NCBI GenBank assembly: GCA_036758585.1
Contig: DAIOWH010000003.1
Location: 6,152 to 70,151 of the forward strand
Direction: 5' to 3'
Source of the DNA: Planctomycetia bacterium
Lineage (GTDB): Bacteria; Planctomycetota; Planctomycetia; JALXBF01; JBGPMX01
Length of the DNA stretch: 64,000 nucleotides
Of this stretch, positions 3,109 through 48,873 are shown in pieces. A model generated the notes under the pieces. It saw nothing but the letters and a program-made list of their open reading frames with translations. It ran no database searches and was not told the DNA's origin. Position numbers and translations under genes: made by a program. Position 1 is the stretch's first letter, and every line of letters begins with the position of its first letter.

Positions 3109-3193
3109 AAGTCGTCCCGACGCGGCCTGTCGTGCATGGTCGCAAGGCGGGGATGCGTGACCGGGTTCAGTTCGAGGGGAAGAAGACGTCACC

Positions 3194-3204: not shown

Positions 3205-6200
3205 ATGAAGTGGTTCAGAAGACTGCTGTCGCGGAGCGCGGGACAAGAACACAAACGGTCGAGATCGCGCGGGCACGGCGAAACGAGGATGGCCGAGCGC
3301 CGCAGCGCGAGTCCGGGAACCGGCGGCACGCGCCGGCGGCGCACGGGGTCGAGCGACCACGAAGAGCGGCGTCTGGCGAAGCCGCACAAGTTCGCGCTGG
3401 AGCGACTCGAAGAGCGTGTGCTGCTGTCGAGCGACCCGATCAAGACTGCGGCCCTAGATCGACTGCAGACGGCCACCGTGTTGGACCAAGACACGATGAT
3501 CTGGGACAACCAGCAGTCGGACTTCGTTCCGGACGAATGGTTGGTTCGTTTCCGGCTCGACTCGGGATTGACGCCCGACCAGCAACGAGTGCAGGCCAGC
3601 CAGCGGCTTGCCACGCTGGCGCCGAATGCGACGCTGGGCGACTACCTGAACTCGCCGGGCCTGTTCGCAATCCAATCGCCGTCTTCGAGTCCCTCGGCGA
3701 TGGCCGCCCTGTTGAACAGCGCCGCCGATCTGGCGTACATCGAGCCGAACTTCGTCGGCACGTGGCTCGCGGTCCCGAATGATTCGCTGTTTGGCCAGCA
3801 GTGGGCGATGAACAACACAGGCCAGACGGGCGGTACGGTGGACGCCGACATCGATGCCGTGGAGGCATGGGACCTGACGACCGGTTCGGCGAGCGTCGTA
3901 GTTGCGGTGCTCGACTCGGGCGTTGACCTGACTCATCCCGATCTTGCCGCCAACATCTGGGTGAATCCGGGCGAGGTTGCAGGCAACGGGGTGGACGACG
4001 ACGGCAACGGCCTGATCGACGACATCAACGGCTTTGACTTCTTCAGCAACGACAACGATCCGAGCGACCCGCTGGGGCACGGTACTCACGTGGCCGGCGA
4101 CGTCGGTGCGGTGGGGAACAACGGAGTCGGCGTAGCGGGCGTCAACTGGACGACCGACATCATCGCGGTCAAGGTGGGCAATGCCGCGGGTCCGTCGATC
4201 ACCGCCACGACGGCGGGCATCAACTACATCACGGACCTGCGAACGAACCGTGGCATCAACGTGCGGGTGATGAACGCGAGCCTCAACCTGCCGTTCTCGC
4301 AGGCGCAACTGGATGCGATCAATGCCGCCGATGCCGCCGGCATCTTGTTGGCCGCGGCGGCGGGCAACTCAAACTCGAACATCGACGTCGTGCCCACCTA
4401 CCCCGCGAGCTACTCAGCGCCGAACATTATTTCGGTCGCCGCCACGACGCACAACGACGCGAAGGCGAGTTTCTCCAGCTTCGGCGCCAACTCGGTCGAC
4501 TTGGGCGCGCCGGGCGAGGACATCCTCAGTACGGTGCCAACCAGCGGCGCGCTCGGCGACCCGTCGGGCTTCCGGTCGTTGGATGGAACGTCGTTCGCGT
4601 CGCCGATCGTGGCGGGTGCGGCGGCGCTGGGATTCGCGATCAATCCGACCGCGACGCACACTCAAGTGCGCAGCGCGATGCTGAACACGGTCGACCCGGT
4701 CGCTGGGCTGTCTGGTCTGACCGCGACCGGTGGACGACTGAATCTGTACGCCATGCTTCAGGCGTTGCAGCCGTCGCCGCCGCCGTCGGTCACCGTCCCG
4801 GGCAGCGGCGGAATCTATCCGAACTTCGCCGCTCAGAACGAGCCGCAGGTCGTCGTACATCCGCTCGACGCCAGCTATGTCGTGGCGGCTTACAATGATC
4901 GTTCCGAGACCAACCAAAACGGCGTTTCGTATTCCAATGATTTGGGCAACACCTGGTACCACACCGGCGTGCCGTTGCCCGCGCTCGGTACGCTGGCCGA
5001 TACAACGGGCGATGATCCGAGCGTATCGTTCGACTCGCTGGGCCGGCTGTACTACGCATCGAGCGGACTGGAGCCTGACCCCAACGACCCGCTCGCGTTC
5101 CGGGTCGAGCCGAACCAAATCGACGTCAAGTCGTTCCAGCGATCAAACGGCATCTTCGTGAGCCGCAGTGATGATTCGGGCGCGACGTGGGGTGTGAACA
5201 ACACGACCAGCACCGCGACCGGCAGCAAGCCGGCCGTGGCGGTGTTCACAAACACCTTCAGCGGCTCCGGCGACGTGAACTTCGAGACCGGGCCGTTTTC
5301 GATCACCGACCGCACGCCGACCAGTCCGTTCCGCAATCGGGTTTACGTGGTGTGGACGCGGTATCATTCCACGGGCGGCGGCGACATCATGTTCTCCAGC
5401 TCGGCCGACGGGGGCGTTACCTGGAGCACCCCACCGCTGGTGATCACGCAAGGGGTGGCCGGCGCCGGGGCCGGCACCGCGTCCGTCGGCACGACGAACG
5501 TCAACGGCGCCCGCTTAGCCATCGCGCCCAACGGCGATTTGTTCGTGGCGTACAACGCGGGCGGACAGATCAACGTACACCGGTCGCGCGACGCGGGTCG
5601 CACCTGGACCGCGGCGACCACGCCGTTTGGCGCGGGTGCGGCGGTCGCCACCATCGGCAGCCCGCTGCCGAGCGGGAACTTCCGTACCAATGCGTTTCCG
5701 GACATCGAAGTGGGGCTCGATCCCACTACGTCGCTGGCGAATCTGTACCTCGCCGTCGCCGACGACCCCGATCAGATCGGCACCGGCCAGGAAGGCGGCG
5801 ACGTGTACTTCGTGCGGTCGCTCGACGCGGCCACGGTCGCCGACGCCAGCTTTGCGGCGGGCACGACCTGGGGCGCGCCCGTGAAGCTGAACAGCGACGC
5901 GGCGGGCAAGAACCAGACGATGCCGCAGATGGCCGTCGACGAGGTCGGCAACATTGGCGTCGTCTGGTACGACACGCGCAATGACGCCGGCAACCACGAC
6001 CTCGAAGTGTTCCAGCGATCGAGCACCGACGGCGGCGCGATGTTCGCGGCCGACGCCGTGCTGACGGCCGCCTCGTTCGATCCCGACACCGGCCAGTTCG
6101 TGGCCAACGCCAACTTCGGCGACCGCATCGGCCTGGCCGCGTTCGGGGCGACCGGCTACGCCGTGTGGACCGACTCGTCGGTCGGCGAGCAATCGATCTT

Positions 6201-9200
6201 CTTCCAGACGTTCTCGATCGGCACTCCCCCGGCTGTGACTGGGCCGCAAGTAGTCAACATCATGGTCCCCGGCGAGGACCCGCTTACGCCGGGCACGGTC
6301 TACGACCAGACCAATTTTCAGCAGAACTTCGAGCCGGTGAACGGACTGGCCAGCCCGGTCAGGCACCTGGTGATCCAATTCGACAAGCCGCTCGATCCGG
6401 TGTTTGCCGAAGATCCGCGCAACTACGACTTGCGCGCGACCGGCGGCGACGGACTGTACCACGTGCGCGTGGAACTGGCGCCGGGCAGCACGGGAGTCGG
6501 GCCGCTGCCCGCCATGGCTTTCACATCGCTGAACGTGGCTGACGGCGCGCTCGGAGGTCGCCAAACGCTCACCACCGGCTTTGGCGGCAACAGCGACCTC
6601 AAGTTCATCGCGTCGGATCCGGCGACCGCCAGCGGCAAGATTCGGGTTCGTTATGTCGCAGACGGCCTGGACGCGCCGCTCACCGTGGACGTGTTCGAGA
6701 ACGTTGCCAGCGGCACCACCGACATCACGGTGAACCTGGCCACCGATGAGTTCGGCACGGTGACCAGTACAGCGGGCGACGTCTTTACGCTGCTCAATAA
6801 CTTCGTCGGCGACGGCATTCTGGGCACCACCGACGACCGGCAGTTCAAGGTGACGCCGGTGTACAACCCGGCCACGCCGTTGTTTGGGGCGAACGGGCCG
6901 CTGGTTCCGACCGTCACGCTCTACATCGAAGCCGATTCGACCACCGGGCATCAGGCGCCGCTGAACCCAGGCAACTACCGGCTGGCGCTCGAGACCGAGA
7001 TCCTCGCCGACAACGGTAAAAGGCTGATCCCGCAGAACGACCCGGACGACGACGGATCGGCCGGGGCGATCCTCGACACCAACTTTGCCTTCGTCGATCG
7101 CAACGACGACCTGCTCGACGACACGCCGACGACTCGTGACGCCTATTACTTCAAGGTGGTGGTGCCGCCGCCCGATCCGGTCGACCCGACCACCGCGGGC
7201 CTCGTGTTTGTCGACCTCACCGACACGCAGAGCGACGCCCCCGGCGCGACGCCCACGCCCGGCACCGCCTCGAACCCGTTCGATTCGGTGCAAGAGGCGA
7301 TCACTCGCTCTGTGGCCGGCAGCACCGTTTTTGTGCGGTCGAACACCGCGGACCAGCCGTACGTCATCGACTTGGCCGCAGCCGATCCCGACAATCGGAC
7401 GCTGCGCATCGAGCGGCAGATGCGGGTGGTCTTCGAGCGCGGCGTGATCGTGAAACTGCGCGAGCGCAAGATCGAAGTGGCCGACGGCGGCATCCTGATC
7501 ACCCAGGGCGAGTTCAACGATCCGGTGGTGTTCACGTCGCTGACCGACGACTTCCACGGCGGCGACACCAACGGCGACGGCGAAAACACCCGCCCGCAAG
7601 CGGGCGAGTGGGCTGGCGTCGTTTTTCGCGCGAATAGCGACAGCCTGAACTCGCGCGTCGAGTTCACGCAACTGCGCTATGCGGGCGGGTTCGACGCGCC
7701 GTCCAGCGTGTCCAACCGGCAGCGATTCAGCCCGATCCACCTGGAGGGCGACACGACCGGCACGATCGGCTCGACGCCCACCATCGTCTCGAACCTGATC
7801 GTCGATTCGTCCGAGCCGGCGATTTCGGCCGACCTCGCGTCGCTCAGCGCGACCGGGCCGACCGGCGTGCCGAACAGCGGGCCCGACGTCCGCGCCAACC
7901 AGATCGGCCGCACGTCGATCAACGGCATGTTCATTCGCGTCGGCATCGATCCCAGTACCAACTCGTTGCGCACGCTGAACCGCGAGATGCGGCTCGACGA
8001 CAACACGATCACGCACGTGCTCACAGACAACCTGTTCATTGCAACGGGCGGCGTCACCCTGATGCCGGGCGTCAATCTCGAACTGTTCGGGTCGATGATC
8101 GACGTGCGCGACGGCACGTTCTTCGACGCGCTGGGGACGCCGCAGAGTCCGGTGGTGATCAGTTCGCTCAAGGACGACCGCACCGGCGTCGGCCCCAACC
8201 ACCTGGGCGAGCGTCAGGTCGATCAGAGCAACGACGGCAACAAGAGCCTGCAGTCGCTGGGCGGCGCAGCGTACGAGGAGTGGGGCGGCATCCGCTATAA
8301 CGCGAATACGCGCGGCGACCTGTTGAGCGCCACGATCGCGTTCGGCGGCGGCAGCGTGCCGTTTGCCGGCGAGTCGCGGGCATTCAACATGATCGAGGTG
8401 CTGGGCGCGCCGACCGCGACGCCGTCGCGGCCTACGTTCGTCAACATCCGCAACAGTGAGCTGCACCACGCGTCGGGCGCCGCCGTGTGGGTCGAGACCG
8501 GCGATATCAACCTGACCGGCAACATGATCCACGACACCCGCACCGCCGGGTTCGTTGACTTCCCCAACCACCCCGAACGAGTCGACCGCAACATCGGCGC
8601 CGCCGTCTCGGTCGATCCAAACACGCTCGACACCGACAGCTACGAGCCAGGCAACACCTACGAGGCCCTAGTCGAACCCGAAATCGTCGGCAATTCGTTG
8701 TTCCGCAACGTGATCGACGGCCTTGACATTCGCGGCCAACACACCGGCGCCGCGGCCAACGGCTCGATCCGCTCGGTCAACGACGGCTCGCTCTCAGTCT
8801 TTGGCCTGTGGGACGACGACGACATCACTCACGTGCTGCGCCGCGACATTCAGATCGGGTTTGCCAATCCGATCGATAGGCCGGTGCCCGTCAACCTGGC
8901 GGTCGGCCCTGGCGTAGTCGTCAAACTCGATCGGACGGTCGACATCACGGTGCTGGGCAGTTCGACCGGCCGGACGGCTGGCGTCGCGTCGAGCATGCAC
9001 ATCGTCGGCGCCGGCGCCGACCCCGAGGCGGTTCCGCCGCGCGACCCGAACCCCGTGCTGTTCACGTCGACCACCGACGACCTGGCCGAGGTCAGCGGCT
9101 TCGACATCGGCCCCGACCGGGCGCCCGGCACGCTCGGCGTCGACGACCCGGACATCAGCACCGGCCTGCCCAACGGCGTGATCGACGATCCCGGCGAAAT

Positions 9201-12200
9201 CGGCCGCGGCGACGATCGCCCGTTCACCGTCGGCGACGTGATGGACATCGGAGTCACCGTTGGCCCGACAACCGGCGCCCCCGCCGACTGGAACACCATT
9301 ACGTTCGAATACAACTCAGACGACTTGCCCGACGAGTTCTCGGCCGTCAAGGGCGGATCGATTGTGGATCACGCCGAGTTCCGGTTTGCTACCAACGCGG
9401 TCACGGCCAGCAGCATTCCGCGTCACACTCCGTTCGCCGCCGACTTCGTCGACCCCGAAGGACCGACAGGCCAGGGGGTCGATCAGCTTCTGCAGGAGGT
9501 AAACCCCCAGAACACGACCACCGGCGGCCTGCCGATCGTCGGCAACCTCGGGTTCGTGAACACCGGCGATTTCGCGCTCACGGGCAACAACGTCTCGCAC
9601 CAGACCACGATCCAGGTCGGCGGCCGCAGCTATAACCCGGCCATCACCGTCTCGGGCTGGATTGACGGCAGTGACGCGCGCCCCGCGGGCCACGTCGACG
9701 CCCTCACCGGCGGCCAGCGCGACGTCGATTGGTACATGTTCACGGCCGATCCCGGTTCGACCATCTGGGTCGATCTCGACTACATCGGCGCCTCGGACAC
9801 GCTCGACGCACAACTCACGCTGTTCCGGTTTCAGCGGGTCACCACCACGTGCGAGCCTGAGGTGATCGCGTACGACGACACCGACAACCGGGTCGGCGGT
9901 ACGCCCCAAGACCGCGTGTCGAACGCCGGCACCACGACGCAGTCGCTCGGCCTGCACGATCTCGAGCCGTACTACGGCAATGACCCCACGTTCCGGCGCA
10001 ACGAAGATCCGCTGATCGGCCCGATCACCTTGCCGGCCAGCACGTGCCAGGGCAACCAGTACATGATCGCCGTGTCGCCGATCAACTACGACGCCGACAA
10101 CATGCGCGGCCTGAACGGCACGCCCGATACGCCGCTCAGCATCGTGCCGCTCCGCGACGGCGGCTACGCCGTGAACCTGCCGAACTCGTCGGGCCGGGCC
10201 ACGGGCTTCGACGACGTCTCCGAAGGCGCATCGAGCGGCACGGGCCAGTACACGATCGAGCTGCGCACCTTCACGCGCCAGACCGACACCAACATTCCCT
10301 CAGCGCTGGAAGATCCGACCCAGAGCGACGCGCGCATCGACGCCGCCGCGAACCAGTACCTCGACAGCTCGGTCTCGGTGCTGCGCGGCAACGGCGAAGA
10401 CCCGCCCGGCCTTGGCGAGGGATACCTGCAGAACAGCACCACCGACCTCGGTACGTTCAACCCGGTCACCGGCACATGGACGATCTCGGTCACCGACAGC
10501 TCCGGCCCGCTGTTCGCTCAGCCGCCTGCGACGAGCGTATCGTTCTTCTTCGACGCGCCGGCCAGCACGCCCCTGGTCGGCGACCTCGACGGCGACGGCG
10601 ACGACGACCTGGCCACGTTTAGCCCGTCCGAGGCCAGTTGGACGCTCGACCTCGACGGCGACCGGTTCCTGACCGAAGACCGCAACGGCGACTTCTATCT
10701 CGATTCGGGCGAAGACATCAATCAGAACCTGGTGCTTGACACCGACTCGGGCGAGATCGGCGTGTTCTTCGGCGGCGCCGGCGACCTGGCCGTCGTGGGC
10801 GACTGGAACGGCGACGGCGTCGATAAGCTCGGCGTCTTCGGCGACGAAGACCTGAACAACAACAACGTGCTCGATGACGGCGAAGACACCGACGGCGACG
10901 GCGCGATCGACGTCGGCATGTGGACCGTCGATTACAACGGCAACCGCACGATCGAGCGCGGCGAGCGCGGCATCCTGTTCCGGCCCACGACCGGCACGAC
11001 CGCCGATTGGCGGCCGCTGGTCGGCGATTGGAACGGCGACGGCCGAGACGATCTGGCCGTGTACGACCGGTCGACCGGCAACTTCTTCATCGACCTCGAC
11101 GGCGACCGCACGCTTGATTGCGGAAGGGACGTGAACTGTGCGACACCCGACGTGGGCAACGAGCAGTTTGACTTCGGCGCGGGCCTGACCGCCTCGGCAG
11201 TGCCGATCGTCGGCAACTGGGATCCAGTCGGCCCCGCAGCCCGCGACCGCGACGACGACATCGGCGTGTTCGATCCGACGACGGCCACGCTGCGTCGCGA
11301 TCTGAACGGCGACCGCATCTTGCAAGCGGGCACCGAGCAGACGACGTACTTCGGCGCTCCGAACGCAGCCGACCAGCCAGTGGTCGGCGATTTCGGCGCG
11401 GCTGCGACCCCAGTCTTTGGCGTCTATCGGCCCGGGTCGAATGAGTTTTTCCTCGACACCAATGACAACGGCACGAGCGCCGGCGACACAAACCCAACGG
11501 GCTGGACCGGCATGGCCGCCGGGCAGCTTGGCGTGGTCGGCGATTGGAACGGCGGCGGCGTCACCGACGTCGGCGTGTTCACCCCGCGTGGCACGGTCGG
11601 CCCGTTCCTGGGCGATTGGAATATCGACCTCAACGCCAACGGGACCAACGACGAAGTCACCCTGTCGTTCGACCGGTTCCGCTCGATTCCAACGACGGGC
11701 GATTGGGAAGGCGACGGCGACCTGAATGCGGGCGTGTACCTGCCCTCGAGCGGCACGTGGTACCTCGACATCGACGGCAACGCGCCCGATGTGGCTAAGG
11801 CGAACAGTGCGAACCCAACCGCCACGACGGTGGCGACGACGGCCGCGCCGGGATTCCGCGAAGGTCCGTTTCTGATCGGCGCCGCGGGCAACGTGCCAGT
11901 CGCGCGCGATTGGGACGGCGAGGGCACGACCGATCTGGGCACGTACGATCGCCGCCGCGGGGCGTGGACGCTCGACCTCAATAGCAATCGCCGGCTCGAC
12001 GTCTCGGTCGAGACCAACATCGTGTTCGGCGGCGCGGGCGGCATCCCGATGCCGGCCGATTTCGACGGCGACGGCCGCGCGAACCTGGCCGTCTATCACG
12101 AAGATCTAGTGCTGCCGCCGCCCGAGCCGCGTGTGGGGCGCTGGTACTTCGACCTGAACGACAACTTCCAGGTCGATCCGGGCGAGGACGCCAAGCCGTT

Positions 12201-15200
12201 CGGCCCGCGGTTCGGTCGGCCCGCCGCGGGCGACTTCGACCTCGACTTCCACCTGTTCGGCGCGGCCGGACCGCTGCGCAGCGACGGCACCGATCAGATC
12301 GTGGTGTACGGCAGCGAGGACTACGACGGCGACGGCTCGCGAGACGCCAGCCTCACTGTCGATGGTTTCACCTTCGATGAAGACGTCAACGGCGACGGCG
12401 ACGTAAACGATTTCGTCTGGTACGTCGATCTCAATCAGAACCGCCGGTTCGACAGCCTGACGGAACGCATCGTGCCGAACCTGGTGAACGAGAACACGTC
12501 GAACAACACCGCAGCGACCGCGACGCCGATCGCGACCCGCCAGATCGGCCAAGGCGCGCTCACGGTCACCGACGTCGACTTCTGGGCCGCGTCGGGAGCG
12601 ACCGCCGGACAGCTTGTCTTCGCCTACGTCGACACGCAGCTTTCCACCAGTAGCACCGACTCGCGGCTGAGCGTGGTCGCCAACAACGGAACCACGGTGG
12701 TCGAGGCCGACGACAACGACGGGCCGGGTTCGCGGGCGGTCGTCGCCGGCGCGGTGGTGCCGCAGGCGGGCAAGGTGTTCTACCAGGTGGATGAACCGGT
12801 CGGCGCCGCAATCGGTTCGTATCAGCTCTACAGCACGGTCACGTCCAGTTTGGGGTTCACCGCTGAAGTCGATCCCAACGGCACGTCGGCCACGGCGACC
12901 GCCTTGAGCGGCGACGAGCTGAAGGGAAGCGGAACGGTTGGCGTCGGCGACGTCGACTTCTTCTCGTTCCAGGCGCTGGCCGGCAGCCGCATCGTCGCCA
13001 TCGTCGATGAGAATCCGGACGACGACGCAAGCAACACGACCGTGGCGATCGAGCTGCGCGGTCCCGACGGGACGACCGTGCTGGCGTCCGGGGACAATGC
13101 GGCGGGCGACGCCGAGGCTGCGGGCGCGGTCTTGTCGGTGAGCCAATCGGGCACGTACTTCCTGCGCGTCGCCGAGGTGGCCGGCAGCGCCGACACGGAG
13201 TATCGCTTCGTCGTACTGGTGTACGACGTGAACCAAAACACCGCTCAGTTGCCGTACATCGGCGATTTCGACGGCGACCGAGCGGCCGATCTGGGCACGT
13301 TCCAGCCCAAGGCGACGCTGACCCCAGACCCAACCGGTTCGGCCAACGACCTTGTGACCTTCACGGCGCGCGAGCCGGGCACGGCGGGCAATAACCTGCG
13401 CGTGCAGTACGTCGCGCAGGTGACCGATGGCGCCGCCAGCGTGGCGGTCGCGGGCAACGATATTACGATCACGCTGGCACGAACGGGCGGCGTGAACATG
13501 ACCGCGGCGGCGTTGGTCCAGTTCCTGCTCACCGATTCGTCGGCAGGCGCTCAGGCGGCGCGGCGGCTGGTCGATGTCGCGGTCGCGCGTGGCACGAGCG
13601 GCGGCGACGCGCTCGGCGCGTTCGGCCCGACCAACCTGACCGGCGGCGGCACTCTGCAGTTCGATCGCGACGGCAACCGCACCAACGATCCGGGCGAGAC
13701 GACGACGGCCGCTTCGACCCCCGCCACTCAAGGCGCCGACGCGGCGTTTGGCGTGCCCGGCCGCTGGGAGCACGATGCCGGCGAGTTCCTGGTCGGATCG
13801 AACGTCCAGGACCTGACGCTTTCGGACCTGGACAACGACGGCAACCTCGACCTCATCGCCGTCAGTCGCGACTCGTTTGCGACCACGTCGACGGTCAGCG
13901 CGGCGACGACCGACTTGGCGGGCGTGACAATCCGCTACGGCACCGGGCGCGGCGGGTTCGAGCGGACCGAACAGCGCTGGACCGCGGGCGTGGCGCCGAT
14001 GGCGGTCGCCGTGGCCGACATGAACGGCGACGGGCTGGGCGACATCGTGGTTTTGAACACGCACGATGTGAACCCGACCGACAACTCGGCGGGTAGCATC
14101 AGCGTGCTGCGCAACCAGGGCGCTCGGTCGTTCGTGCGCGACGACCCGAACACGAACCCTGCGGGCCTCCAGGCGTGGCAGACCGGCGGCGTCGCCCCGC
14201 GCGACCTGGTGCTGGGCGACTTTATTGCCATCGACCGCACCACCGGCGCGACCATGCTCGGCCGCGACGGTTTCCCCGACGTCGCCGTGGCCAACTTCGG
14301 CAACCCCGACCCGAACAACCTCGACGCCTGCACCTCGTTGTCGTGCAACGTCGCGGTGATGCCAAACCGGACCGGTTTTACCGGCACGACGCCGGGCGCG
14401 GTCATCACCTTCCCGGCGGGCGGCGGGGCTGTGGCCACGCCCGTGCCGGCCTACACGCGCAACAACCGCCCGACGTCGATTGCCGCCGCCGACCTGAACG
14501 GCGACGGCTATCTCGACCTGGTGACGGCCAACGCCAGCGACATTGCCAACACCAACGGCACGACCGTCACGGTGCGGCTCGGCCAAGAGAACGGCTCGTT
14601 TATCGTCAATGATCTGGACACGAACACGACCTCGACGACGCAGCACTCCAGCCTGAGTCCGTTCGGGCAGGACCCGGCGGGCATCGCGGTGGCGACCGAG
14701 GTTCAGCCGCTGTTTGGGTTCCGCCAGACCGGGGCGGGCAACACCGCCGTGCAGGCGCAGCGGGTCAATCCGGTAAACGCCCAGTCGACGAACATCCCGG
14801 GCGCGACCCAAGACGTCATCGTCCAGGGCTCGGCCCGCATGCCCGATGGGCTGAACAACCAGGCGTTTGTGTTGGCGCAGAATGAGCGTCAGACGATCAC
14901 GCTCGCCTTCGCCACGGGATCGGCCACCTACACGCTGTTCTTCATCAATCAGGTCACCGGCCCGATCGCCGACAATGCGTCGGCGGCGACTGTGCAAGCG
15001 GCGCTCGAGGGGCTTTCGACGATCGGGGCGGGCAACGTGTCGGTAACCGGCCCGAATGGCGGCCCGTACACGGTGGACTTCCAGGGTGCTCTTGCGTCGC
15101 AAGACGTTCCTCAGCTTGTGGCGACGCCGACGGCGCCGCTTACGGTCACGGTCGGCGCGACCCGCGGCGGCAGCGCCGCCACCGACGCCGGCCGCATTTA

Positions 15201-18200
15201 CGTGAGCGGCACGGATACCAGCACGCCGAACACCGACACCGCTTACAGCGACGCCGCCGGCAATGTGATCGCGCATCGGCTCTATGTGTTGGACCAAAAC
15301 ACAGGCCAACTCGTCCACCCAGTCACGGGTGCTGCGGGCCAAGGGCTGGCGTTCTTTGAAGACCCGTCGGAACGGTCGCAGGCCAGCGCCATCGTGGACA
15401 CCACGGCCGTTCCTGGCGGCGCCGGGCAGCCCGGGCCGGGCGGTGCACGGATCCGGATCACCGCTTCGGAGAACATCCCGGGAATTCAAGGCAATGCGAT
15501 GCGCATTGTCTTTTCGATGAATACAGCCAGCACCGAGACGACCGTAACGGCGAATTGCAACGAGCTTCTGACACTCAACGTCGCATTGGGCAGCGACGGA
15601 ACCAACGTCACGGCCACGAACGCCCAAGTACTCGCCGCACTGAACGCGGCGACCTTCGCGGGCGGCCGGCGCCTGTTGTATGCCGAGTTGATCACGGGCG
15701 TGCTGAACGACAACTTCCTTGGCGACTTCGACAGTTCGAACAACGCCACGGCCCCTCCGCCGGTGGACAACGTGGCGTACTATTCGGCCACGCTGTTTCC
15801 GGCGACTCCCGGTCCGCAGCGGTTCCTGCTCGATGATGTGAACAATAGCGCCGTCGTCACGGGTCCCTTCAATGGCACGTTTACGAACCAGCCGTTCTCG
15901 GGCGGCAGCGGCGGCAGCTTCCACGACGCCCAGTTGGACATCCGTGGTTTGGCAATCCATCCGGGCCCCGGTCCGTTGGCCGGCCAGTTGTTTGGGATCA
16001 TGGGCGGTCCGCAGCGTCTTTTCCCCGCCCCGACCGCGCCGTTTGCGCCGGGCGATCCGCGAAACTTCCAGACGGGTCCGGTCAACGACGGCAACGCGGC
16101 GACTCAGGAAGGCAGTGTCACCGGGCAGTTCGGCGTCGGCGGCTCGTTCTATCTCATCGATCGTCAGACCGGCAAGGTAAGCGTCATGGGTTCGAGTTGC
16201 CAGGTGGCCTTTCCCGAAGGCCTGGCGTTCCGGCCCAACGGGACCGGTCTGAATCCGAACCAGGACCTTGCGGCGGCAACGTTGGCGGACCAGCAGCCCA
16301 CGTTGTTCGCGACCGACGCCGAGTTCCTGCCGGGGTTCGCCACGTCAACGCCTCAGAACTCGACCTTGGTGTACTTGCAGTACACGCCGACTGCCGACTT
16401 CCTGACCAATCAATCCACTTACGTCCCATCGGGCACAAACGCAGGGCCGGGGAGCTGGAACGCCCCGACGGTCACGAACGGCGCCGGGCACCTCTGGCAG
16501 CTCGACCTCACGGGCAACCGCGTGGTCACGCCGCCGCAAGAAAACCAGTTCACCTTTGGTCTGCAGCCGGACGTGGTCCCGATCACGGGCAATTGGGACG
16601 CGCCACGGGCGAACGAGGTGCAGCGGGTCACACTGACGGGCGGCAACACCGGCACTCAGAACTTTACGCTGACGTTCAATGGCGAGACCACGACGGACAT
16701 TGCGGACAACGCCAGCGCCGCCACCGTGCAAACGCGACTGCAGGCGCTGATGGGCGTCGTCGGCAACGTATCCGTCGCCGGCCCGGACGGCGGCCCGTAC
16801 GACGTCACGTTCCGCGCCGGGTTTGCCCGCACCAACGTGCCGCAGATGACGGCTTCGGCTGCTGCGCCGCTTGCGGTGGCGGTGACCACCACGACGCAGG
16901 GTGAAGGCGACGAAGAAATCGGCGACTTCAACACGGCCACCGGCGTGTGGGTGCTCGACTTGAACGGCGATCGGGCCGCGCAGGCGAATGAGATGTCTAT
17001 TGTCTATGGCGTCCGCACCGCCCGAGTCACCACCAGCATCGCCGGCGACGACAACGACCTGGTCTTTACCTCCAGGTTGTCCACGCCGGTCGGGCCGAAT
17101 TTCACGGTTCAGTTGGTCGATCCGCTTCTGGCCAATCAGGCGCTGACCATGGCGGTGACCGGTACCAGCCTGGTCATCAACCTGGCTACGAACGCCACGC
17201 CGGTGGTAACCACCACGGCCCAAGACATCATCGACTGCATCATGAACCTGGTGGTGAATGCGTGCAGTTCGTCGGCGGGCGCCGCGGCCGCGCGGGCGTT
17301 GGTCAGCGTGGCGCTTACGGCGGACGATCAAGCGGCCGGCACCGGCAACACAGGCGCCAGCGCGGTCGCCGCGTTTGGGCCGCGAGACTCGCTGCATGTC
17401 CGGCTCGAATCGCCTGTCGTCGGCGATTGGAACGGCGACGGCATCGACAACATCGGAACATTCGATCGCGGGACCGGCACTTGGACAATCGACCTCGACG
17501 GCGATTTCCGAATCGACGCCGGCGAACAGTTCGGCGGCTGGCTGATCGCGACGGGCCTTCAGGCGATCGTGGGCGACTGGGACGCCGATGGCGTGCGCGA
17601 CGACTTTGCAGTCTACGACAGCGTGTCCGGCGCGCTGGCCGTGGACCTGAACGGCAACCGCGTAATCGATCTGCCGGGCGAGCTGTTCGGCGGCCTCACC
17701 GGCCCGAGCGTTAGCGTTTCCAAGTTCTTCGTCGACCTGTTCGCCCAGCCGGGCGCCATACTCGACGGGCCTGGCGGCGTCGCCGTCGACGCCAGCGGCA
17801 ATGTCTATGTCAGCAGCTTCACCACCGACACGGTCGTCCGATTCAACTCGTTCGGTCAAAACCCCACTACGTTTATCACGGCGAACTTGGGCGGCATGGA
17901 CGGACCGGCGGGTTTGGCGCTGCAGGATGTAAACGCGGACGGCACGGAAGACTTGTTCGTGGCCAGCTTCAACACGAACCAGATTTACGTCTACGATGGA
18001 GCTGCCGGGACTTTGCTGTTCAACTCCGCAATCGGTAGCGTCACGGGGCCAGTTGGGGTCGAGGTCGGGCCGGACCGTAACTCCGATGGCCTGGGCGATA
18101 TTTTTGTCTCCGCCAGCGGAACCGATACGGTGCTGATCTTCGATGCGGCTCCCGCCGGTGCGGGCGCTTCGTTGGGCGTCATGGTGACGGCCGCCACAGC

Positions 18201-21200
18201 CGGGCTGGACAATCCTCAGGGGCTGCGTTTCGGTCCGGACGTCAATGGCGACGGCGTTCGCGACTTGTATGTGGCCAGTGGCGACACGGACCAAGTGTTG
18301 GTCTTTAACGGTGCAAACGGGGCCGCGATCAACCAGCCGGCGGGCACGCCGCCGATCTCCAACAGCGTCTTTGTCGCGGCCGGTACGTTGCTCGACCAGC
18401 CGACCTACCTGGAGTTCGGTCCCGACCTGATGCTCTACGTGGCGGGCGGATTGACGAGCAACGTGAACCGTTACGTAGGCGCCACTGGGGCGTACCTCGA
18501 CGAGTTCGTGCCGGCCGCGGGCGACGTGACGCTGTCGAACGCCCAAGGGCTGGCCTTCAGCTCGACCGGCCAGTTGTTCATCAGCAGCTTCGGAAACGAC
18601 CGTGTGCTGCAGGCGGGTCATTTCGTGGCCGGCGCCCTGTTCAAGCCGGGGCTGGTGGCCCCGCAGTTCGTGGTTCCGGCGAGCGGCCTCAACGCGCCGC
18701 AAGGCATCGCTGTCGGTCCGGATTACAATGCCGACGGCGTCAATGATGTCTACGTCGCGAGCGGCGGTATTGCCAACACGATCCAAGTATTCGACGGAAG
18801 CAGCGGCGCACCGCTGGGCGACTGGCTGGGATTGGCGCCGGTTCAGCCCAACTCACTGCCGACGGCCCCCACCGGCATCGTGTTCGGTCCGGCCGGCGTG
18901 GGCGGTCACCTGTTTGTTTCGAGTTCCGGCACCAACCGAGTCAAGCGTTACGACGACGCCAACGGCAACTTCGTCGGCGACTTCACTCCGACCGTGCCGG
19001 GTACACCCGCAGGCTTCACCGCTCCGACCGGTCTGGTGTTCGGCAACGACATCAACGCAGGTGGTGGCCCCGAACTGTTCGTGGCCAGTTCCACAGGCAA
19101 CGCGATCTTTGCCTTTGACGACACAAGCGGCACGCAGTTCGGCGTCGGCCCGTTCGTCGCGGCGGGGTTGGCGGGCCTGTCGAACCCCGGCGGTCTGGCA
19201 ATGGGCCCCGACGTCAGCGGCGACGGTGAGCTGGATCTGTACGTGGCAAACACCGGCGGCAACAACGTGCTCGTGTTCAACGGCATGGACGGTTCGGTGA
19301 TCAATCGCAATGAAGTCATCAACAGCCTATACGTGCCCGCCGGATCGGGCGGCTTGGCGTCGCCGCGCGACCTGAAGTTCGGGCCCGACGGCCGGCTTTA
19401 CGTCACCAGTTTCACGACGAACAACGTACTCGTGTTCAACGGCGTACCGGCCGGAACGGTGACGGATACCGAACCAAACAGTTCGCCGCCTCCCGCCGCC
19501 GTCGCGCAGAACATCGACTCGGCAGGCTGGAACCTCAGGTCGAACGCCAACATCGGCGACGCGGCCGTGGACACGTCCACGACCATTCCGCACGTGACGA
19601 TCAATGGCACGGGCGACGGCACGGTGGACATCTACTCGTTCACGACCCCGGCGGCCGCCACGCGAGTGATTCTCGATATCGACTTCGGATTCGAAGGCGG
19701 CATGGACGCCTTCCTGCGGGTCTACGACAACCTCGGCAACGTGCTGTTCTCGAACGACGACGCGGCCGCCACGACGGATGGTCAGGGTGGCAGTACCGAC
19801 GTAGTCGACTCGTTCCTCGACATCCCCAACATTGGCGCGGCGGGGACCTACTTTGTTGAGGTCAGCAATGAGGGCGGGGTTGGCGGCGGGGCCCCGATCA
19901 ATGCCGGCGAGACGTATCAGTTGCAAGTGTCGATCGTGGGGCACACGGGCGGCGGCGGAACGTCCTTCGAGGACGATTTCGTGTTCACCGGCAGCGGCGG
20001 ACTTGCCGGGCCGACCTACATGACATTCGACACCAGCACGCCAGGCAGCGCGCTGTACGTCAGTTCGCTGACCGGCAACGCGGTGTACCGCTACAACGGG
20101 CCGTACCTGCCCGAATCGACCTTCCTGAGCCAGTTCGTCACCACAGGCAGTGGCGGCTTGAACGTGCCGCGCGGCGTGCTGTTCGGTCCGGACGGAAACC
20201 TCTATGTGGCCAGCGCGTCGGCCGGGCTCGACCAGATTCTGGAATACGATGGCGTGACCGGCGCGTCGGTGGGCGCTTTTGCCACCGGCGGCGGGTTGAA
20301 TGATCCCCGCGAAATGGCCTGGGGGCCTGACGGCAACTTGTACGTTGCCAATAACGGCGGCGACGACGTTATCCAGATCAATTTCCTCACGGGCGCGGTT
20401 AGCCAGTTCGTGGCATCCGGTTCGGCGGGACTTGCCAATCCGTCAGGAATCACGTTTGGCACGGACGGGAATCTGTACGTGACAAGCACAGTGTTCGGAT
20501 TCGGTGGAGATGCCACGAGCTCAATCGTGAAGCGGTACCAAGGGCCGAATGGAGCGATGCCCGGTGGTTCGCTCGGCGATTTTGTCACGAATAACAGTGG
20601 CGGTCTGGACGATCCGCGAGATCTGATCTTCGGAACGGACCTGAACGGAGACAATGTTCCCGAGCTCTTCGTGTCGAGCGACGACAACGACTCGGTTCGA
20701 GTGTACGACGGCACTTCCGGCGCGCCGGTGGACATCGGCCTCGGGGCGGGCCTGTTCGTCTCCAATGCCGCGACACCTTCGGCCGGGCTGGATGCTCCAC
20801 GCGGGCTGCTGTTTGGTGAAGACGGAAACCTGTATGTTTCAAACCAGGACATTGATGAAGTTCGCCGGTTCAGCGGTCTGACCGGCTTGCTACTTGACAT
20901 CTACGCTAGTGGCAGCTTGCTGGACAGTCCGCAAGGCCTGACATTCGGCCTCGATGGCAACCTCTACGTCGCGGGCGGCAACCCGTTCGGCGGCGGCAGC
21001 ACCAACGACGTGAAGCGGTTCGCACCGTACCCGGTGAGTTCGGGGAGTCTCGGGGTAACGAGCAGCATTGTTCTGCGCGGCAACTTCGACGGAAACGCGG
21101 GCGACGAGATCGCGCTGTTTTCTCAGGCGGCCGGTTCGTTCAGCGTCGACCTGGACGACTCGATGCGCGGCAGCGGAACCATTATCGGCGGCGGCGAGAC

Positions 21201-27200: not shown

Positions 27201-30200
27201 CGCGGCCGGCGGCACCAGCGACCCCAACGGCGACAACGACCTGTTCAACGACGGCAACGAAGTGGTGATCCCGATCACTTCGTTCAACGTCAACAACAGC
27301 TACTGGACCGACGCCAACCTCAACAACATCATCGACGGCAACGAAATCAAGCACCTGGTGACGCTGACCGTCGCCGACCCGCGCACACCGAACCCGCCGG
27401 TGCCGATCACGCCCGGCGAGCTGGCGACCGATCGCTACCAACTGCGGCTGCTGAGCAACGCGGCCAACACCGACCAGGCCGGCAACATCCTGGACGCGGC
27501 CACCTTTGTCCTGGCGGTTGACCACAACGACAAGCCGGAATTCGCCGAGGAGTTTGGCGAGATCGTACACCGCTTCGATCCGAGCCTGACGATCACGCCG
27601 GGCGACGAGGACTGGTACAAGTTCACCGCGGCGGTGGACGGCACGGTCAGCCTGCGGCTGACGCTGAGCGACCCGCGCGGCAACGGCGTGCTCGATTGCG
27701 GCGCCGACCTGGTGTGCGGCACCGGCGACGCGGGCGACGAGGACCTGGACAACGATGGATCGCTCGATCCGGGCGAAGACCTGCCCGACGGAGTGCTGCG
27801 CGAAGACGAGACGCTGCGGCTGCAGATTTACGATTCGTCCCTGCCGACTCCGACACTGCTCGGCGAGGGCACGGTGAACGCCCTGACGTTCGAGGTGCGA
27901 CTCGACGACTTCACCACCGACGACGGACCCGGCACGGCGAACGGCCGCGAGTTCTTCATCCGCGTCTGCGGTCTGCCCACGGCGGCTGAGACGGCGACGG
28001 GCAGTCCGTTCACACCGGCGGGTTACCCCAACGGCTGCAGCGACGTATCAGGAAACGACTACAACCTCGACCTGATCGTGCACGACCGGTTCGAGCGATT
28101 GAACAGCGCGCACGAGCTTTATGCGTCGCGGCCGACGGTCAACGCGCCGCTGATGATCGTCGATTACACGTCGGCGTTGGCGCCGCCTCTGGGCAGCGCG
28201 ACCAACCGCACTGGCCCGGTCACTACGCTGACCCCGCTGGGCGACATCGACTTCGACGACTCCGGACGGCTCTACGCCGGCACGATCAACGGCGGCAACT
28301 CGATCGTCCGCCTGCACCCCGACTTCGGCTCGGTCATTCAAACGATCACGCTGTCGCCGGCGACCGGGTTCACGTTCCCCGCGCCCGGCACCGCGTCGGT
28401 GACGGCGATTGAGTTCCAGCCGGGCACGGGCGCCGTGTTCGCCGCGCTGATGTTCGGCGGCGCTGGTTCAACGTTGGCGACCGTCGATCTCTCCACCGGA
28501 CAGGTTACGCCGGTCGGCGGCGCGTTCGGCAACACAGGTGTCGGCGCTATCGGCGGCCTGGCGTTCGACCCCGCCGACCCGACGGGCGGCACGCTGCTGG
28601 CCGTCACCGAGTCGGGTGCGTCGAGCGGCCTCTTGGTAACGCTCGACCTGACGACCGGTCTGGCCACCTCGATCAACACCACGGGCTTCACCGACGTGTC
28701 GGGCCTCGAGTTCCACCCGCTCACGGGCAAGCTGTACGCGACGTTGGGCCCGAACGAGAGCACCACCGGCGCCGGCCGACCGGGCGACCTGGTGATCATC
28801 GACCCGGTGACGCCGACCTGCGGCCTCGGCACGACCGCGGTCGTCGGCGTGGTCGGCTGCGGCGGCCTGGGCACGAACGTCGCGCTCAACGGCGTGTCGT
28901 TCCGGCCGCGCGGCAACGATACGCCGATCTCGACGACCGGCCTGCCGACCAATACGACCGAAGAACTGGTTCACGTCGTGGACGCGCCGAGCAACACGCG
29001 CAACCTGACGCTGCCGCTGCACAACCCGCTCGAGACGGGCGTGCAAGACGATGAAGACTGGTACACGTTCACGGTCCGCGCCGACAACGGCCAGATCACG
29101 GTGCGCATCGACCTGCGCGACCGCAACGGCGACGGTTCACTTGGCCTCGACGAGCGGCTCGGCCTCGAGCTGTACACGCCGCTCGACCTGGTCACGCCGG
29201 TTCAGGTCGGCATCGTGTCGAACACGTTCAGCGTGGTGGCGGCCGACGTGGCGGCTGGGCGCGGCGATGTGTTCCTGGCCCGCGTCTTCGGCAACCCGGG
29301 CTTCAACGAATACGATCTGGAAATCTTCAACGACGACCGGCTCGAACCAGTGGTCACGCCCGAGGAGCTGTTCGCGACGTCGACGAATCCGGCCAAGCCG
29401 TTCACCGTGGGCGACGTCACCAGCGGCCCGCAGTTGGTTACGGTCGACACGGCGACCGCGCTGGCAACCGCGGTCGGCCAGACGCTCGCGGCTGGCAGTC
29501 CGACCACGATCGAGGCGATCGATTTCGATGTGGTCGGGAACCTGTATGGCGTGCGCAAGGTCGATGCACCGGACACGCCGGCCGGAACGGACCCCGATAC
29601 CGACGTCGACGATACGCAACTGGTCTTTATCAACCCGTCCGACGGCAGTGTCACGGGCATCGGCTTCGCGATCGATAAGATAATCACCGCGATCGAGTTC
29701 CACCCGGTCACGGGCGAGTTGTTCGGTACGGCGGTGCCGGCGGCCACGCCGAGCAACTCGGAACTGGTGCAAATCGACCAGACCACCGGCGCGGTGACGG
29801 TCATCGGTATGGGGACGACGGTCGGACCGTTGGGCGGCCTGGCGATCCATCCCGACGGCACTTTCTATGCGATCACGTCGGGCGGCGGCGTGCTGGTGCG
29901 ACTCAACACGACCACCGGCGTGGCGACGGTTATCAATCCGACGGGCTTCACCGACGTGTCGGAGCTGGAGTTCGATCCGACGAACACGTTCATGTACGGC
30001 GCGTTGGGGGATCTCGAGAACACGTCGGCGCCGGGGCTGCCCGGCGACCTGGTGCAAATCGATCCGTTCGACGCCAGCAACCCCGTCGTTGTGGGCCCCA
30101 CCGGGTTCGGCGACCTGGGCGCGCTGTCGTTCCGGCCGCGGCGGTTCGGCAACGACACGACCGAGACGGCCACGAGCCTGGGCGACCTGGTGAACGTACA

Positions 30201-33200
30201 CGAGCCGAACCTGACGATCACGCGCGACGGCCTGCAGGGCGCCGCGCCGACGCGGGCCGACCAGGACTTCTACGCGTTCCGCACCACGGTGACGGGCAAG
30301 GTCTTCATCGACGTGCGGCTGCACGACCGCGACAACGACGGCGTGCTCGATCCCGACGAGAAGCCGTCGCTGCAACTGCTCGACGCGGCGGGCGCCACCG
30401 TGTTGGCCACGGGAGTGTACGACTCGACGCTCGACGACGACGGCAACGGCGTGGCCGGCCGTGCGTTCTTCGACCACGTCAGCACAGGCGGGAACAACGA
30501 CCTGCGGTTCCTGGCCGCGGCGACCGGACCGGCGGGCAACAACGTCACCATCGCGATCATCGCCCCCGGCGCGGCCAACCAGCCGCTCACGATCAATGTC
30601 GTGGGCAGCGCGATTACCGTTCAACTCGCGACCAACGCCTCGTCGGTCGTGACGACCACCGCTCAAGGGTTGATCACGGCCATCCAAAACGACGGGGCAG
30701 CCAGCAGCCTGGTGACCGTCCAGGGAACCGGCGATTTCGGCGCCGGCGGCGGTACCGTCACAGCGCTGCCGACGACGAACCTGATGGGCGGCGACACCGA
30801 CGACGGGTTCAGCGTCTACATCACCGAGGTCCCGAACGACCCGGACGCGGGTTACCGCGTGCAACAGGGCGAACGGTTCCGGATCCGTATCGGCAACGAT
30901 GAGGTGCAGACGCTCACGCTGACGGGCGGCGGCGCGACGGACACGTTCACGCTCACGTTCAACGCGGCGACCACGCCGACGCCGTTGGCGCGAACAGCCA
31001 CGGCGGCCCAGGTGCAGACGGCGCTCGAGGCCCTGGCGACCGTCGGCGGCGGCAATGTCACGGTCACCGGTCCGGCGGGCGGGCCGTACAACGTGGCGTT
31101 CCAACAGGCCCGCGGCAATGCGAACCAGCCATTGGTCACCGGCGCGGGCACCGGCGGACTGACCGTCGCGCCGACGGCCGCAGTCGAAGGCGGCAGCGCC
31201 CATGCGGTCTACGACCTGGACATCCAGAACGAAGACCGCTTCGAGTTCAATAACTCGGCCGATCCGAGCGGCAACGCGGGCTTCACACGGCCTCAAGGTC
31301 CAAACACTGTCGGGGCCAACGATGCCACGACAGGACCGACGGTGCCGGCGTTCACCTTCGGCGCGGGCACCACGCAGCCCGATGTGTTCATGCTCGGCGA
31401 TCACGTGATCGTCATGAACGACTTGAACCTGCCGGTGCGCACCAATCGCTCACCCGACGGCACGATCACGGCGTTCAACGACAACGACTTCTACCGGTTC
31501 ACTGCCGCCCGAACGGGAGTACTGCACCTACGCGTCGACCTCAACGACCTCGACGGCAACGGTACGCTCGACTCGGACGAGACGCTGTCGGTGGAGCTAT
31601 TCCGCGGCGCAGTCCTGCAGGCGGTCGCGACCGTGACCGACAGCGTGATGACCGACGGCGACGGCTTCGGCCTGTTCGTCAATGACGTCGTGGCCAGCTT
31701 GGGCGAAGTGTTTACGTTGCGTGTGTTTGGCCAAGGGCCGCTGGCGAACATTCGCGGGTTCACCGATTACGGGCTGACGCTGGGCAACCAAATCGCCATC
31801 ACTGACGACCGGTTCGACCAACCGATTTCGGCCGCGCCGGGCGATCCGCTGGGCCGCAACGATTCCAGCCTGCCCGCGGTCCGCACCGACCTCGGCGTCA
31901 TCTCGCGGTTCGACGACGACACGCTGTCGATCAGCTTCAACGACAACAACGCCAACATCAACAGCCCGCTCAGTCCGGCTGATGGCGACTGGTACCGGTT
32001 CACTGCCAACGCCACTGGCTTCCTCGACATCGGTCTCACCCTGCGCGATCTCGACAACGACACGGTTGCCAGCGCCAACGAGTTGCTCGACTACAGCCTG
32101 TACAGCGACGCCGGCGCATTCATCGGCCAGGCTTCCACGACGGTCGGCGGCCCGCTGCTGCTGTTCGGGTTCAACGAGGTCCAGCGGGTTGCTTTGAGCG
32201 GCGGCATTGGCACAGACACGTTCAATCTGACGTACACCGACGGATCTGGCCCCGAGACGACCACAGACCTTGCGCGAAACGCGACGGCGGCCAACGTCCA
32301 GGCCGCGCTCGAGGCGCTGGCCGGCATCGCGCCGGGCGACGTGTCGGTCAGCGGCGCGGACGGCGGCCCGTATACGATCACGTTCCAGGGCAATCTCGAG
32401 AAGACCGACATCGCACAACTGACGGCCGGCAGCACCGGTTCGCTCAGCGTCGCCGTCACCACCGTTACCGACGGCGGCCGAAACCTGAGCGTCACGGCGA
32501 GCGACACGTTCCTGCTGCAGGTCACAGGCACGAGCCAGCTCAACGTCAACAACTACCGGCTGGAGATTCTGAACCACGACGTGTTTGAGCGTGCGTCGTC
32601 GTCGTTCCCCGACGGCTCAGGCTCGCCCGAGCCGTATCCCGACGACCTGAACAACCGCAACGATTCGGTCGCGTCGGCCACAGATATCGGCACGATCGTA
32701 CACCGGTTCGTCGCCGACTACACGTTGTCCGACCTGACGATCGTGCCGACCGCGCTGGCCAGCCCGTTCTCGGCCACGTCGGGGCCGGCCGACACCGACT
32801 TTTTCTTGATTCAGCCGATGGCCCGCGGATCGCTGACGATGCGGATGGATCTGGACGACCCGGACGGCGACGGCACGCTGGACCCATTGGAGAATCTGCA
32901 GCTTGCGATCATGGCGCGTGGGGTCACCTGCCCGACCAGCGCCGGATTCACCGCACTGGCCACGGCCGCGTCGGTGACGGGCGCCCCGTTCAGTACGGCG
33001 ATCACGGACTTCGCCGTCAACGAGGACGAGTGTCTGTTGGTGCGCGTACGTGCGCCGCAGTTCGGAGCGCCGTTCTCGGCCAACGGCTACCGACTCCAGT
33101 TCACCAACCACGACGCCTTCGAACAGACGGCGAGTGCATTCCCAGTCGGCGATGGCATCTTCCCCGACGATCCCGACCGGCGCAACGACAACCTGCTGCA

Positions 33201-48621: not shown

Positions 48622-48861
48622 TCGGCAATATGTTGTAAGAATGCAACGCGCCGCTAGGTTGGGTGGGATGTACCAGCACGGCGGGTGGGCGGTGGCCTGC
48701 GAGGCGGCGTGTCGGCCGTTGGACTACAGCCTGAGAATGGAACTGTCGAAGTTCCAGCATGTCTCCGGGGGGAGGCTCTCCACGCCTGACGTTTTGCGGG
48801 CGGCCTTGATCGCCCGTGTTCTGCTTCCGCCGGTTACGGACAGGGGCGTTTTTTGGGAATC

Positions 48862-48866
48862 GAGGT
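48862..48866 (+). promoter_or_regulatory. Shine-Dalgarno GAGGT 8 nt upstream of ATG 48874
   Basis: tcGAGGTccaacaaATG. Confidence 0.5.
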
Positions 48867-48873
48867 CCAACAA

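Follow-up and report, generated by a model that had tools for sequence, protein, structure and literature searches.

Four copies of an uncatalogued domain related to the Bxb1 C-terminal extensions in a 15,175-aa planctomycete protein

The window analysed here, a whole stretch of 64,000 nucleotides (nt) from a Planctomycetia bacterium (GenBank contig DAIOWH010000003.1), holds a giant gene whose 15,175-amino-acid (aa) product carries four dispersed copies of a unit of about 105 aa, named module B in a preliminary description of the sequence. As detailed below, this unit is related to the C-terminal extension (CTE) domains of mycobacteriophage Bxb1. The copies were delimited with profile hidden Markov models (HMMs), and their scores with the four-copy model (own HMM), with the broader family model and with models built from the other three copies (leave-one-out) are given where they apply. 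The carrier gene and the copies are as follows:

3094 to 48621, + strand: carrier gene, encoding a 15,175-aa multidomain protein (from the list of open reading frames, ORFs, and Pfam scans)
14872 to 15186, + strand: module B copy 1 (B1), aa 3927-4031; own HMM E 1.8e-50, family HMM 117 bits, leave-one-out 91.6 bits
16603 to 16920, + strand: module B copy 2 (B2), aa 4504-4609; the sequence used for structure prediction
30889 to 31209, + strand: module B copy 3 (B3), aa 9266-9372; family HMM 108 bits, leave-one-out 84.9 bits
32164 to 32484, + strand: module B copy 4 (B4), aa 9691-9797; family HMM 117 bits, leave-one-out 100.8 bits

In the two giant proteins of the window, the HMM built from the four copies was matched significantly at these four places and nowhere else, all of them in the frame of the ORF 3094-48621 (+). 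Each copy was also recovered by the HMM of the other three, with 85-101 bits (E 1e-28 to 1e-33), and the family HMM scored the four window copies at 108-117 bits, while the highest score in 20 shuffles of the whole giant protein was 8.5 bits. The preliminary description had placed the copies within approximately 20 nt of these refined limits; its estimate of 35-45% identity was slightly low, as the measured pairwise values are 43-52%. It had also stated that tens of kilobases separate the copies, which is correct between the two pairs but not within them, B1 and B2 being 1.7 kb apart and B3 and B4 1.3 kb.

The second giant gene of the window (gene 2; 48790-64000, + strand) runs past the window end and encodes more than 5,000 aa, its first Met codon lying at 48874. 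A degenerate fifth relative had been suspected in this gene (aa 3696-3740, nt ~59875-60010), but the family HMM gives this region -2.4 bits with an independent E-value (i-E) of 0.62, hhalign gives a probability of 0.1%, and Pfam has no match there either. According to the family HMM, gene 2 has no module B copy, and its 331-aa segment at nt 59407-60399, the sole part scanned against Pfam, matches no family. A search for more divergent copies in either giant gene, made with the family HMM and the --max option, reached a best i-E of 0.05.

Regarding the coding frame, the GC content of the giant gene at codon positions 1, 2 and 3 is 0.63, 0.51 and 0.85, and it is similar inside each copy, where the third position (GC3) has 0.82-0.88. 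Long ORFs of 755-1,284 aa also cover the copies on the minus strand (12106-15960, 16345-18786 and 29137-31404), with a GC peak at codon position 1 (0.82-0.88) that mirrors the sense frame. Because of this mirror-image codon-position GC, they are considered shadow ORFs of a high-GC gene and not genes.

As seen by Pfam scans, the giant protein possesses an S8 subtilase, BNR, PPC, FG-GAP, NHL, LamG_3 and beta-helix domains and long Big_13/Big_6 arrays, a content that appears typical of extracellular proteins. The PPC domains are located at aa 3286-3360 and 5511-5591, and FG-GAP repeats stand directly ahead of B1. In addition, a unit of approximately 68 aa occurs after B2 (aa 4651-4718, nt 17044-17247, +) and before B3 (aa 9132-9199, nt 30487-30690, +); the two are 47% identical, have no match in Pfam or among PDB sequences, and may correspond to the unit called module A in the preliminary description. 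Weaker relatives of it are present at aa 1164-1236, 3382-3512, 7430-7546 and 7744-7861 of the giant protein. The flanking units at aa 4613-4763 and 9800-10043 are likewise without a PDB sequence match and without a Pfam match, and the spacer between B3 and B4 shows a weak PPC match (E 0.1). The statement that each copy abuts a PPC-like or module-A unit is then confirmed at most in part: B1 follows FG-GAP repeats, the unit shared after B2 and before B3 may be module A, and PPC is seen only as that weak match between B3 and B4.

When the four copies were compared with domain catalogues, Pfam-A returned zero families even at E <= 10 and NCBIfam returned sub-threshold matches only, such as TIGR03996, whose cut-off is 627.9 bits, with 21.8 bits; these matches, HMG-CoA lyase included, lie far under the threshold and were taken as chance. 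Neither scan of the four copies produced a match to a catalytic family. Moreover, Pfam has no family covering the module in nine proteins with three to 25 matched stretches, and for this reason module B is regarded as uncatalogued and not merely as divergent in this protein.

The relatives of the module were found among phage proteins of solved structure. In all PDB sequences, the four-copy profile matched the 'Tail tip cage, gp23' of entry 9D93, which is from mycobacteriophage Bxb1, over three consecutive units (aa 267-467) with E 7.2e-33, then the 'Major capsid protein' gp14 (9D9W; aa 316-394 of 397, E 7.3e-7) and, weakly, the 'Tail tube, gp19'. With a profile of 78 sequences, all three matches are significant (gp23, 5.6e-66; gp14, 4.7e-11; gp19 aa 201-239, 7.1e-6). 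The Bxb1 capsid protein gp14 and tail-tube protein gp19 have been described as carrying mutually related C-terminal extensions of ~90 aa, missing in close relatives (PMC8704799; earlier mention in PMC3029335), and the distal tail protein as carrying 'three additional CTE-like domains' (PMC13252515). As shown by truncation mutants and serology, the CTEs are located outside the shell and are immunodominant, and no role has been assigned to them; they can be deleted (gp14 after D304, gp19 after V213), and Bxb1 still assembles and infects without its capsid and tail-tube copies (PMC8704799). The module B matches in the Bxb1 proteins coincide with these published CTE segments.

All four copies also match PHROG families (E 3e-13 to 2e-4), and the matches are confined to the module-bearing segments of the profiles: phrog_5042, whose function is not assigned (E 3.3e-13 for copy 1), phrog_10909 (E 9.9e-12 for copy 2) and phrog_792, both major tail proteins matched in the C-terminal part, and phrog_2839, a tail sheath with the insertion at ~54-151. 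These families are profiles of whole phage proteins, not of the module, and give it no name or function. The earlier view that no characterised family bears this signature then holds for Pfam-A and NCBIfam, which have no model of it, but not for the characterised Bxb1 CTE domains, which are homologous; a known family was found in part, through a solved structure and the PHROGs, and a named domain family was not.

The fold was modelled by AlphaFold2 (AF2) from copy 2 on an alignment of 78 sequences, replacing a four-sequence alignment with which one of five models was confident. The model has a mean predicted local distance difference test score (pLDDT) of 91.9, with 84.6-91.9 across the five models, and is composed of strands at residues 6-12 and 20-25, a short hairpin, a helix of 12 residues (39-50) and strands at 56-59, 66-70, 83-86 and 91-98. 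In a Foldseek comparison of this predicted model with the solved structures of the PDB, the top match was Bxb1 gp23 (9d93_Ma), with a template modelling (TM) score of 0.78 on the query, E 1.7e-6 and 35% identity, followed by the capsid of Bxb1, the phage Patience minor capsid protein, the tail tube of Bxb1 and the sheath of cyanophage A-1(L). Against BFVD, which holds predicted structures of viral proteins, actinobacteriophage major and minor tail proteins were matched with TM 0.79-0.86 and a root-mean-square deviation (rmsd) of 1.7-2.0 Å, the best being a major tail protein of a Microbacterium phage (TM 0.86, rmsd 1.7 Å). Immunoglobulin (Ig) domains appear in the PDB list only at E >= 1, with TM ~0.3-0.4. 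Because of the predicted helix and this ranking, module B is, according to the model, an alpha/beta domain and not an Ig-like or PPC-like sandwich. Sequence, predicted fold and the nature of an add-on all agree, and module B is a member of the Bxb1 CTE family.

This family is very large. HMMER was run exhaustively over 1.84 billion cluster representatives (50% identity); 11,296 of them matched at E <= 1e-3, of which 4,749 remained at E <= 1e-10 and 659 at E <= 1e-30. The unit is thus clearly not absent outside this locus, an absence that the preliminary description would have taken as counting against its reading. Carriers have up to 41 matched stretches per protein and are up to 7,600 aa long. 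Many standalone proteins of 104-108 aa consist of the module alone, one of them annotated by its source as 'trimeric autotransporter adhesin [Solirubrobacteraceae]'. Among GenBank phages, 514 records carry it, all of them actinobacteriophages, mainly in minor tail proteins of the cluster-A type and Gordonia major tail proteins. In IMG/VR, a search with no more than two short peptide patterns gave 227 confirmed viral-contig loci, in which two carrier genes are often adjacent. Several structural proteins of one phage often carry the module, and once it is excised, viral carriers are still matched over their length by PHROGs of major tail, major head, head-tail adaptor and minor tail proteins.

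In species-representative genomes, 33 loci from approximately 10 phyla or classes were found, eight of them in Planctomycetota and others in Solirubrobacterales, Armatimonadota, Chloroflexia, Eisenbacteria, Hydrogenedentota, Verrucomicrobia, Cyanobium, Syntrophomonadaceae and Mycobacterium. The cellular or prophage carriers include NHL-propeller proteins and four proteins from metagenome-assembled genomes (MAGs):

L003, 2401-4191, + strand: FlgE hook protein (Flg_bb_rod, FlgE D1, D2) of a Syntrophomonadaceae MAG, with two tandem copies at aa 199-406 between D1 and D2
L012, 2860-3579, + strand: fusion with a lambda gpD-like head decoration protein (HDPD), Mycobacterium MAG
L007, 370-2220, + strand: fusion with a Prophage_tail endopeptidase tail protein, Hydrogenedentota MAG
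L018, 1-4743, + strand: giant Big/ASH/TSP3 surface protein of a Cyanobium MAG, with the module at aa 1000-1106, directly behind an HExxH-type motif 'TAHEAAHTLGAIH'

The carriers of L012 and L007 are likely prophage genes inside bacterial MAGs. The FlgE carrier is neither a phage protein nor an adhesin. The HExxH segment of L018, which has no Pfam match, may be metalloprotease-like, judging by its motif. In one Solirubrobacterales MAG, CAWGQE01 (L009, L011, L015 and L016), at least four paralogous proteins of ~1,250 aa have one copy each at about aa 140-260, and in L009, the one of the four that was scanned, the copy precedes NHL-propeller repeats. Further carrier domains are PATR, dockerin, Big_13, FG-GAP_2 and, once, PPC, and many carriers have no Pfam domain at all. 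A constant association with PPC, suggested as a point to check, was not found: PPC is present in one of the 19 Pfam-scanned library carriers and in none of the nine genomic-locus ORFs. An obligate partnership between module B and PPC was rejected, PPC being rare among the other carriers.

From 1,334 instances, the family consensus reads N-E-v-Q-t-V-t-L...G-T-F-T-L-T-F-x-G-q-T-T-x-x-I/L-a-y-N-A-t-A-a-x-V-Q-a-A-L-e-a-L-x-x-I-G-x-G-N-V-x-V-t-G...G-G-P-Y/W/F-t-V-t-F-x-G-x-L, of which the pattern first drawn from the window copies was a correct rendering. The conserved positions are the inward hydrophobic residues of the strands and the helix, the turn glycines and the polar residues E5, Q7, T28-T29 and N35. 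At the alternate strand positions that face outward, Thr or Ser predominates; the loops vary, as do the last ~20 residues, and G, T, A and V are abundant in the overall composition. A Thr-Gln ester or another intramolecular cross-link, which the conserved E5, Q7 and T29 might suggest, is unlikely because the family alignment has no conserved His or Asp.

The module can also be nested in itself: 17 times, in 14 proteins, a full copy lies contiguous with an N-terminal half (profile positions 2-54) ahead of it and a C-terminal half (54-100) behind it, as seen in profile matches to the L040 ORF (aa 70-285), the L088 ORF (aa 167-373), P0125, P0130, P0137 and others, and the insertion point is the loop just behind the helix. 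The order of partial matches in Bxb1 gp23 (aa 267-587) looks like a double nest. The termini of module B are probably close together in space, which would explain its free use as a loop insertion.

Concerning the history of the four copies, they are 50-57% identical to copies on viral contigs and in unrelated proteins, being as near to these as to their sisters (44-53% in this comparison). Copies 2 and 4 are the only reciprocal best matches (53% identity), the best matches of copies 1 and 3 lie on viral contigs (50-54%), and no retrieved sequence is more than 57% identical to any window copy. Since the sisters are no closer to each other than to phage copies and their codon-position GC equals that of the host gene, the comparison supports old duplication, as already put forward in the preliminary description, or separate acquisition, and not a recent expansion. 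A recent import from phage or prophage into the giant gene could be read from the viral best matches of copies 1 and 3, but it is very unlikely, considering the ceiling of 57% identity, the GC3 of the copies beside 0.85 for the whole gene, their position in frame within a continuous ORF of 15,175 aa and the absence of phage genes nearby. It is also very unlikely that module B has diverged from one of the catalogued beta-sandwich families PPC, Big/Ig-like or FN3. Its neighbours in the protein do include PPC-like and Ig-like units, and an Ig-like fold is usual for the decoration domains of phages (PMC3029335), but no such Pfam match appears at E <= 10, and the model packs its 12-residue helix on the sheet and leaves Ig domains at E >= 1 and TM ~0.3-0.4. 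As to a lineage-specific Gly/Thr/Ala-rich low-complexity repeat with no defined fold or family, the G/T/A/V-rich composition and the silence of Pfam and NCBIfam would suit it; it is nonetheless refuted by the five confident AF2 models and their match to a solved structure, as well as by 11,296 homologues, spread over phages and many phyla, and by shuffles that stay at or below 8.5 bits.

Module B is probably a non-catalytic, independently folding add-on domain, and by analogy with the phage systems it would act in the giant protein as a scaffold for decoration or adhesion that is exposed to the outside. The members of its family, of ~85-105 aa with two strands, a short hairpin, one helix and four strands, are grafted at a terminus or into a loop of proteins that are complete without them, and the carriers are outer parts of extracellular assemblies, namely the heads, tail tubes, sheaths, adaptors and tail tips of phages, a flagellar hook and giant bacterial surface proteins. 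The giant protein itself would be exposed on the outer surface, as its extracellular-type domain content suggests, and module B would be a stable, solvent-exposed scaffold in it, lengthening its reach and attaching it, weakly and multivalently, to surfaces or glycans, a role proposed for phage Ig-like decoration domains (PMC3029335). An exposed decoration scaffold is preferred because there is no catalytic match, the location is on the outside in every case examined and the module is dispensable where tested. What weighs against it is that the adhesion role is transferred by analogy across different folds, that of the Ig-like model system not being the one predicted here; binding of glycans, in this case mycobacterial ones, is known from the Ig-like domains of mycobacteriophage Douge (PMC13033339) and not from the module B family. 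The main rival, which seems rather unlikely, is a homotypic packing module that builds cages, rings or lattices and does not bind an external ligand, so that the pairs B1/B2 and B3/B4 would clamp the intervening segments or link molecules side by side. Packing would agree with the arrangement of the window copies as two pairs, with self-nesting, with the frequent presence of the module on several structural proteins of one phage and with its strong conservation across carriers, which would suit a self-recognising surface. Furthermore, gp23 copies form the 'tail tip cage', as named by its depositors, and shape the baseplate barrel (PMC13252515), and the capsid extensions of Bxb1 are closely packed at hexamers and arranged differently at pentamers (PMC8704799). 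However, many carriers possess just one copy, on a protein that looks monomeric, such as the NHL-propeller proteins, and the virion of Bxb1 forms and remains infectious without the capsid and tail-tube copies (PMC8704799). A bolder and unlikely possibility is an active recognition module with one shared specific activity, either self-association into cages or lattices or the binding of an envelope component that is widespread. A single activity would explain both the 50-59% identity between copies of the giant protein and of phages of unrelated hosts and the simultaneous presence of the module on capsid, tube, sheath, adaptor and tail tip. If true, bacteria and their phages would trade an extracellular 'Velcro' unit that they have in common, and the promiscuous Ig-like domains of phages would have their first counterpart outside the Ig fold.

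Ig-like domains on phage structural proteins were reportedly described by Fraser et al. in 2006. Module B resembles them in being small, promiscuous, dispensable and surface-exposed, common to capsid, tail and bacterial surface proteins and often borne by several proteins of one virion (PMC3029335, PMC8704799), but they are all-beta sandwiches with no sequence relationship to it, whereas the predicted alpha/beta fold of module B has a helix. The closest known system is the Bxb1 CTE of gp14, gp19 and gp23 (PDB 9D93, 9D94, 9D9W/9D9X; PMC8704799, PMC13252515), which is alike in sequence family, predicted fold, size (~90-105 aa) and addition to a complete protein. It differs in that the carrier here is a 15,175-aa bacterial multidomain protein and not a virion subunit, and in that the window copies are internal and dispersed, while those of Bxb1 are C-terminal or in tandem; besides, the window copies are not nested, while those of gp23 appear to be. 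PPC (PF04151) is likewise small and accessory, belongs to secreted proteases and giant surface proteins, and is present in the giant protein, but it has no sequence match within the module B copies and co-occurs with them occasionally. This sort of carrier is new for the CTE family; that phages and bacterial surface proteins have small surface modules in common is well established.

The remaining features of the window concern the N-termini of the giant genes and the genes upstream:

63-1442, + strand: upstream gene for a DUF1501 protein, by sequence match
1492-2475, + strand: upstream gene for a PD40/Tricorn-type (TolB-like) beta-propeller, by sequence match
3397-3426, + strand: LERLEERVLL, aa 102-111 of the giant protein
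48961-48990, + strand: LERLEERVLL, aa 58-67 of gene 2

The motif LERLEERVLL is identical near the N-terminus of both giant genes, behind an Arg-rich leader. The pattern LExLExRxLL is typical of huge secreted proteins of planctomycetes. The DUF1501 gene would suit an origin in Planctomycetota or Verrucomicrobiota, and taken with the motif it points to Planctomycetota. A classical signal peptide is not evident near the N-terminus of the giant genes, and the start codon of the first is uncertain, with Met codons at 3136, 3205 and 3289.

With this assignment, four unexplained stretches in one of the largest bacterial ORFs become a recognisable domain with a solved structural relative, and the Bxb1 CTE, described as a curiosity of one mycobacteriophage, becomes the visible tip of a very large family that has no Pfam or NCBIfam model. 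A domain model made from the present alignment would annotate thousands of 'hypothetical' proteins. The same model would point out sites on phages that are exposed at the surface, can be deleted and are strongly immunogenic. Such sites are of use in phage display and in engineering phages for therapy, which was the aim of the first work on the Bxb1 extensions (PMC8704799). The module B family is then a defined target, for which one binding or structure study would have a wide pay-off.

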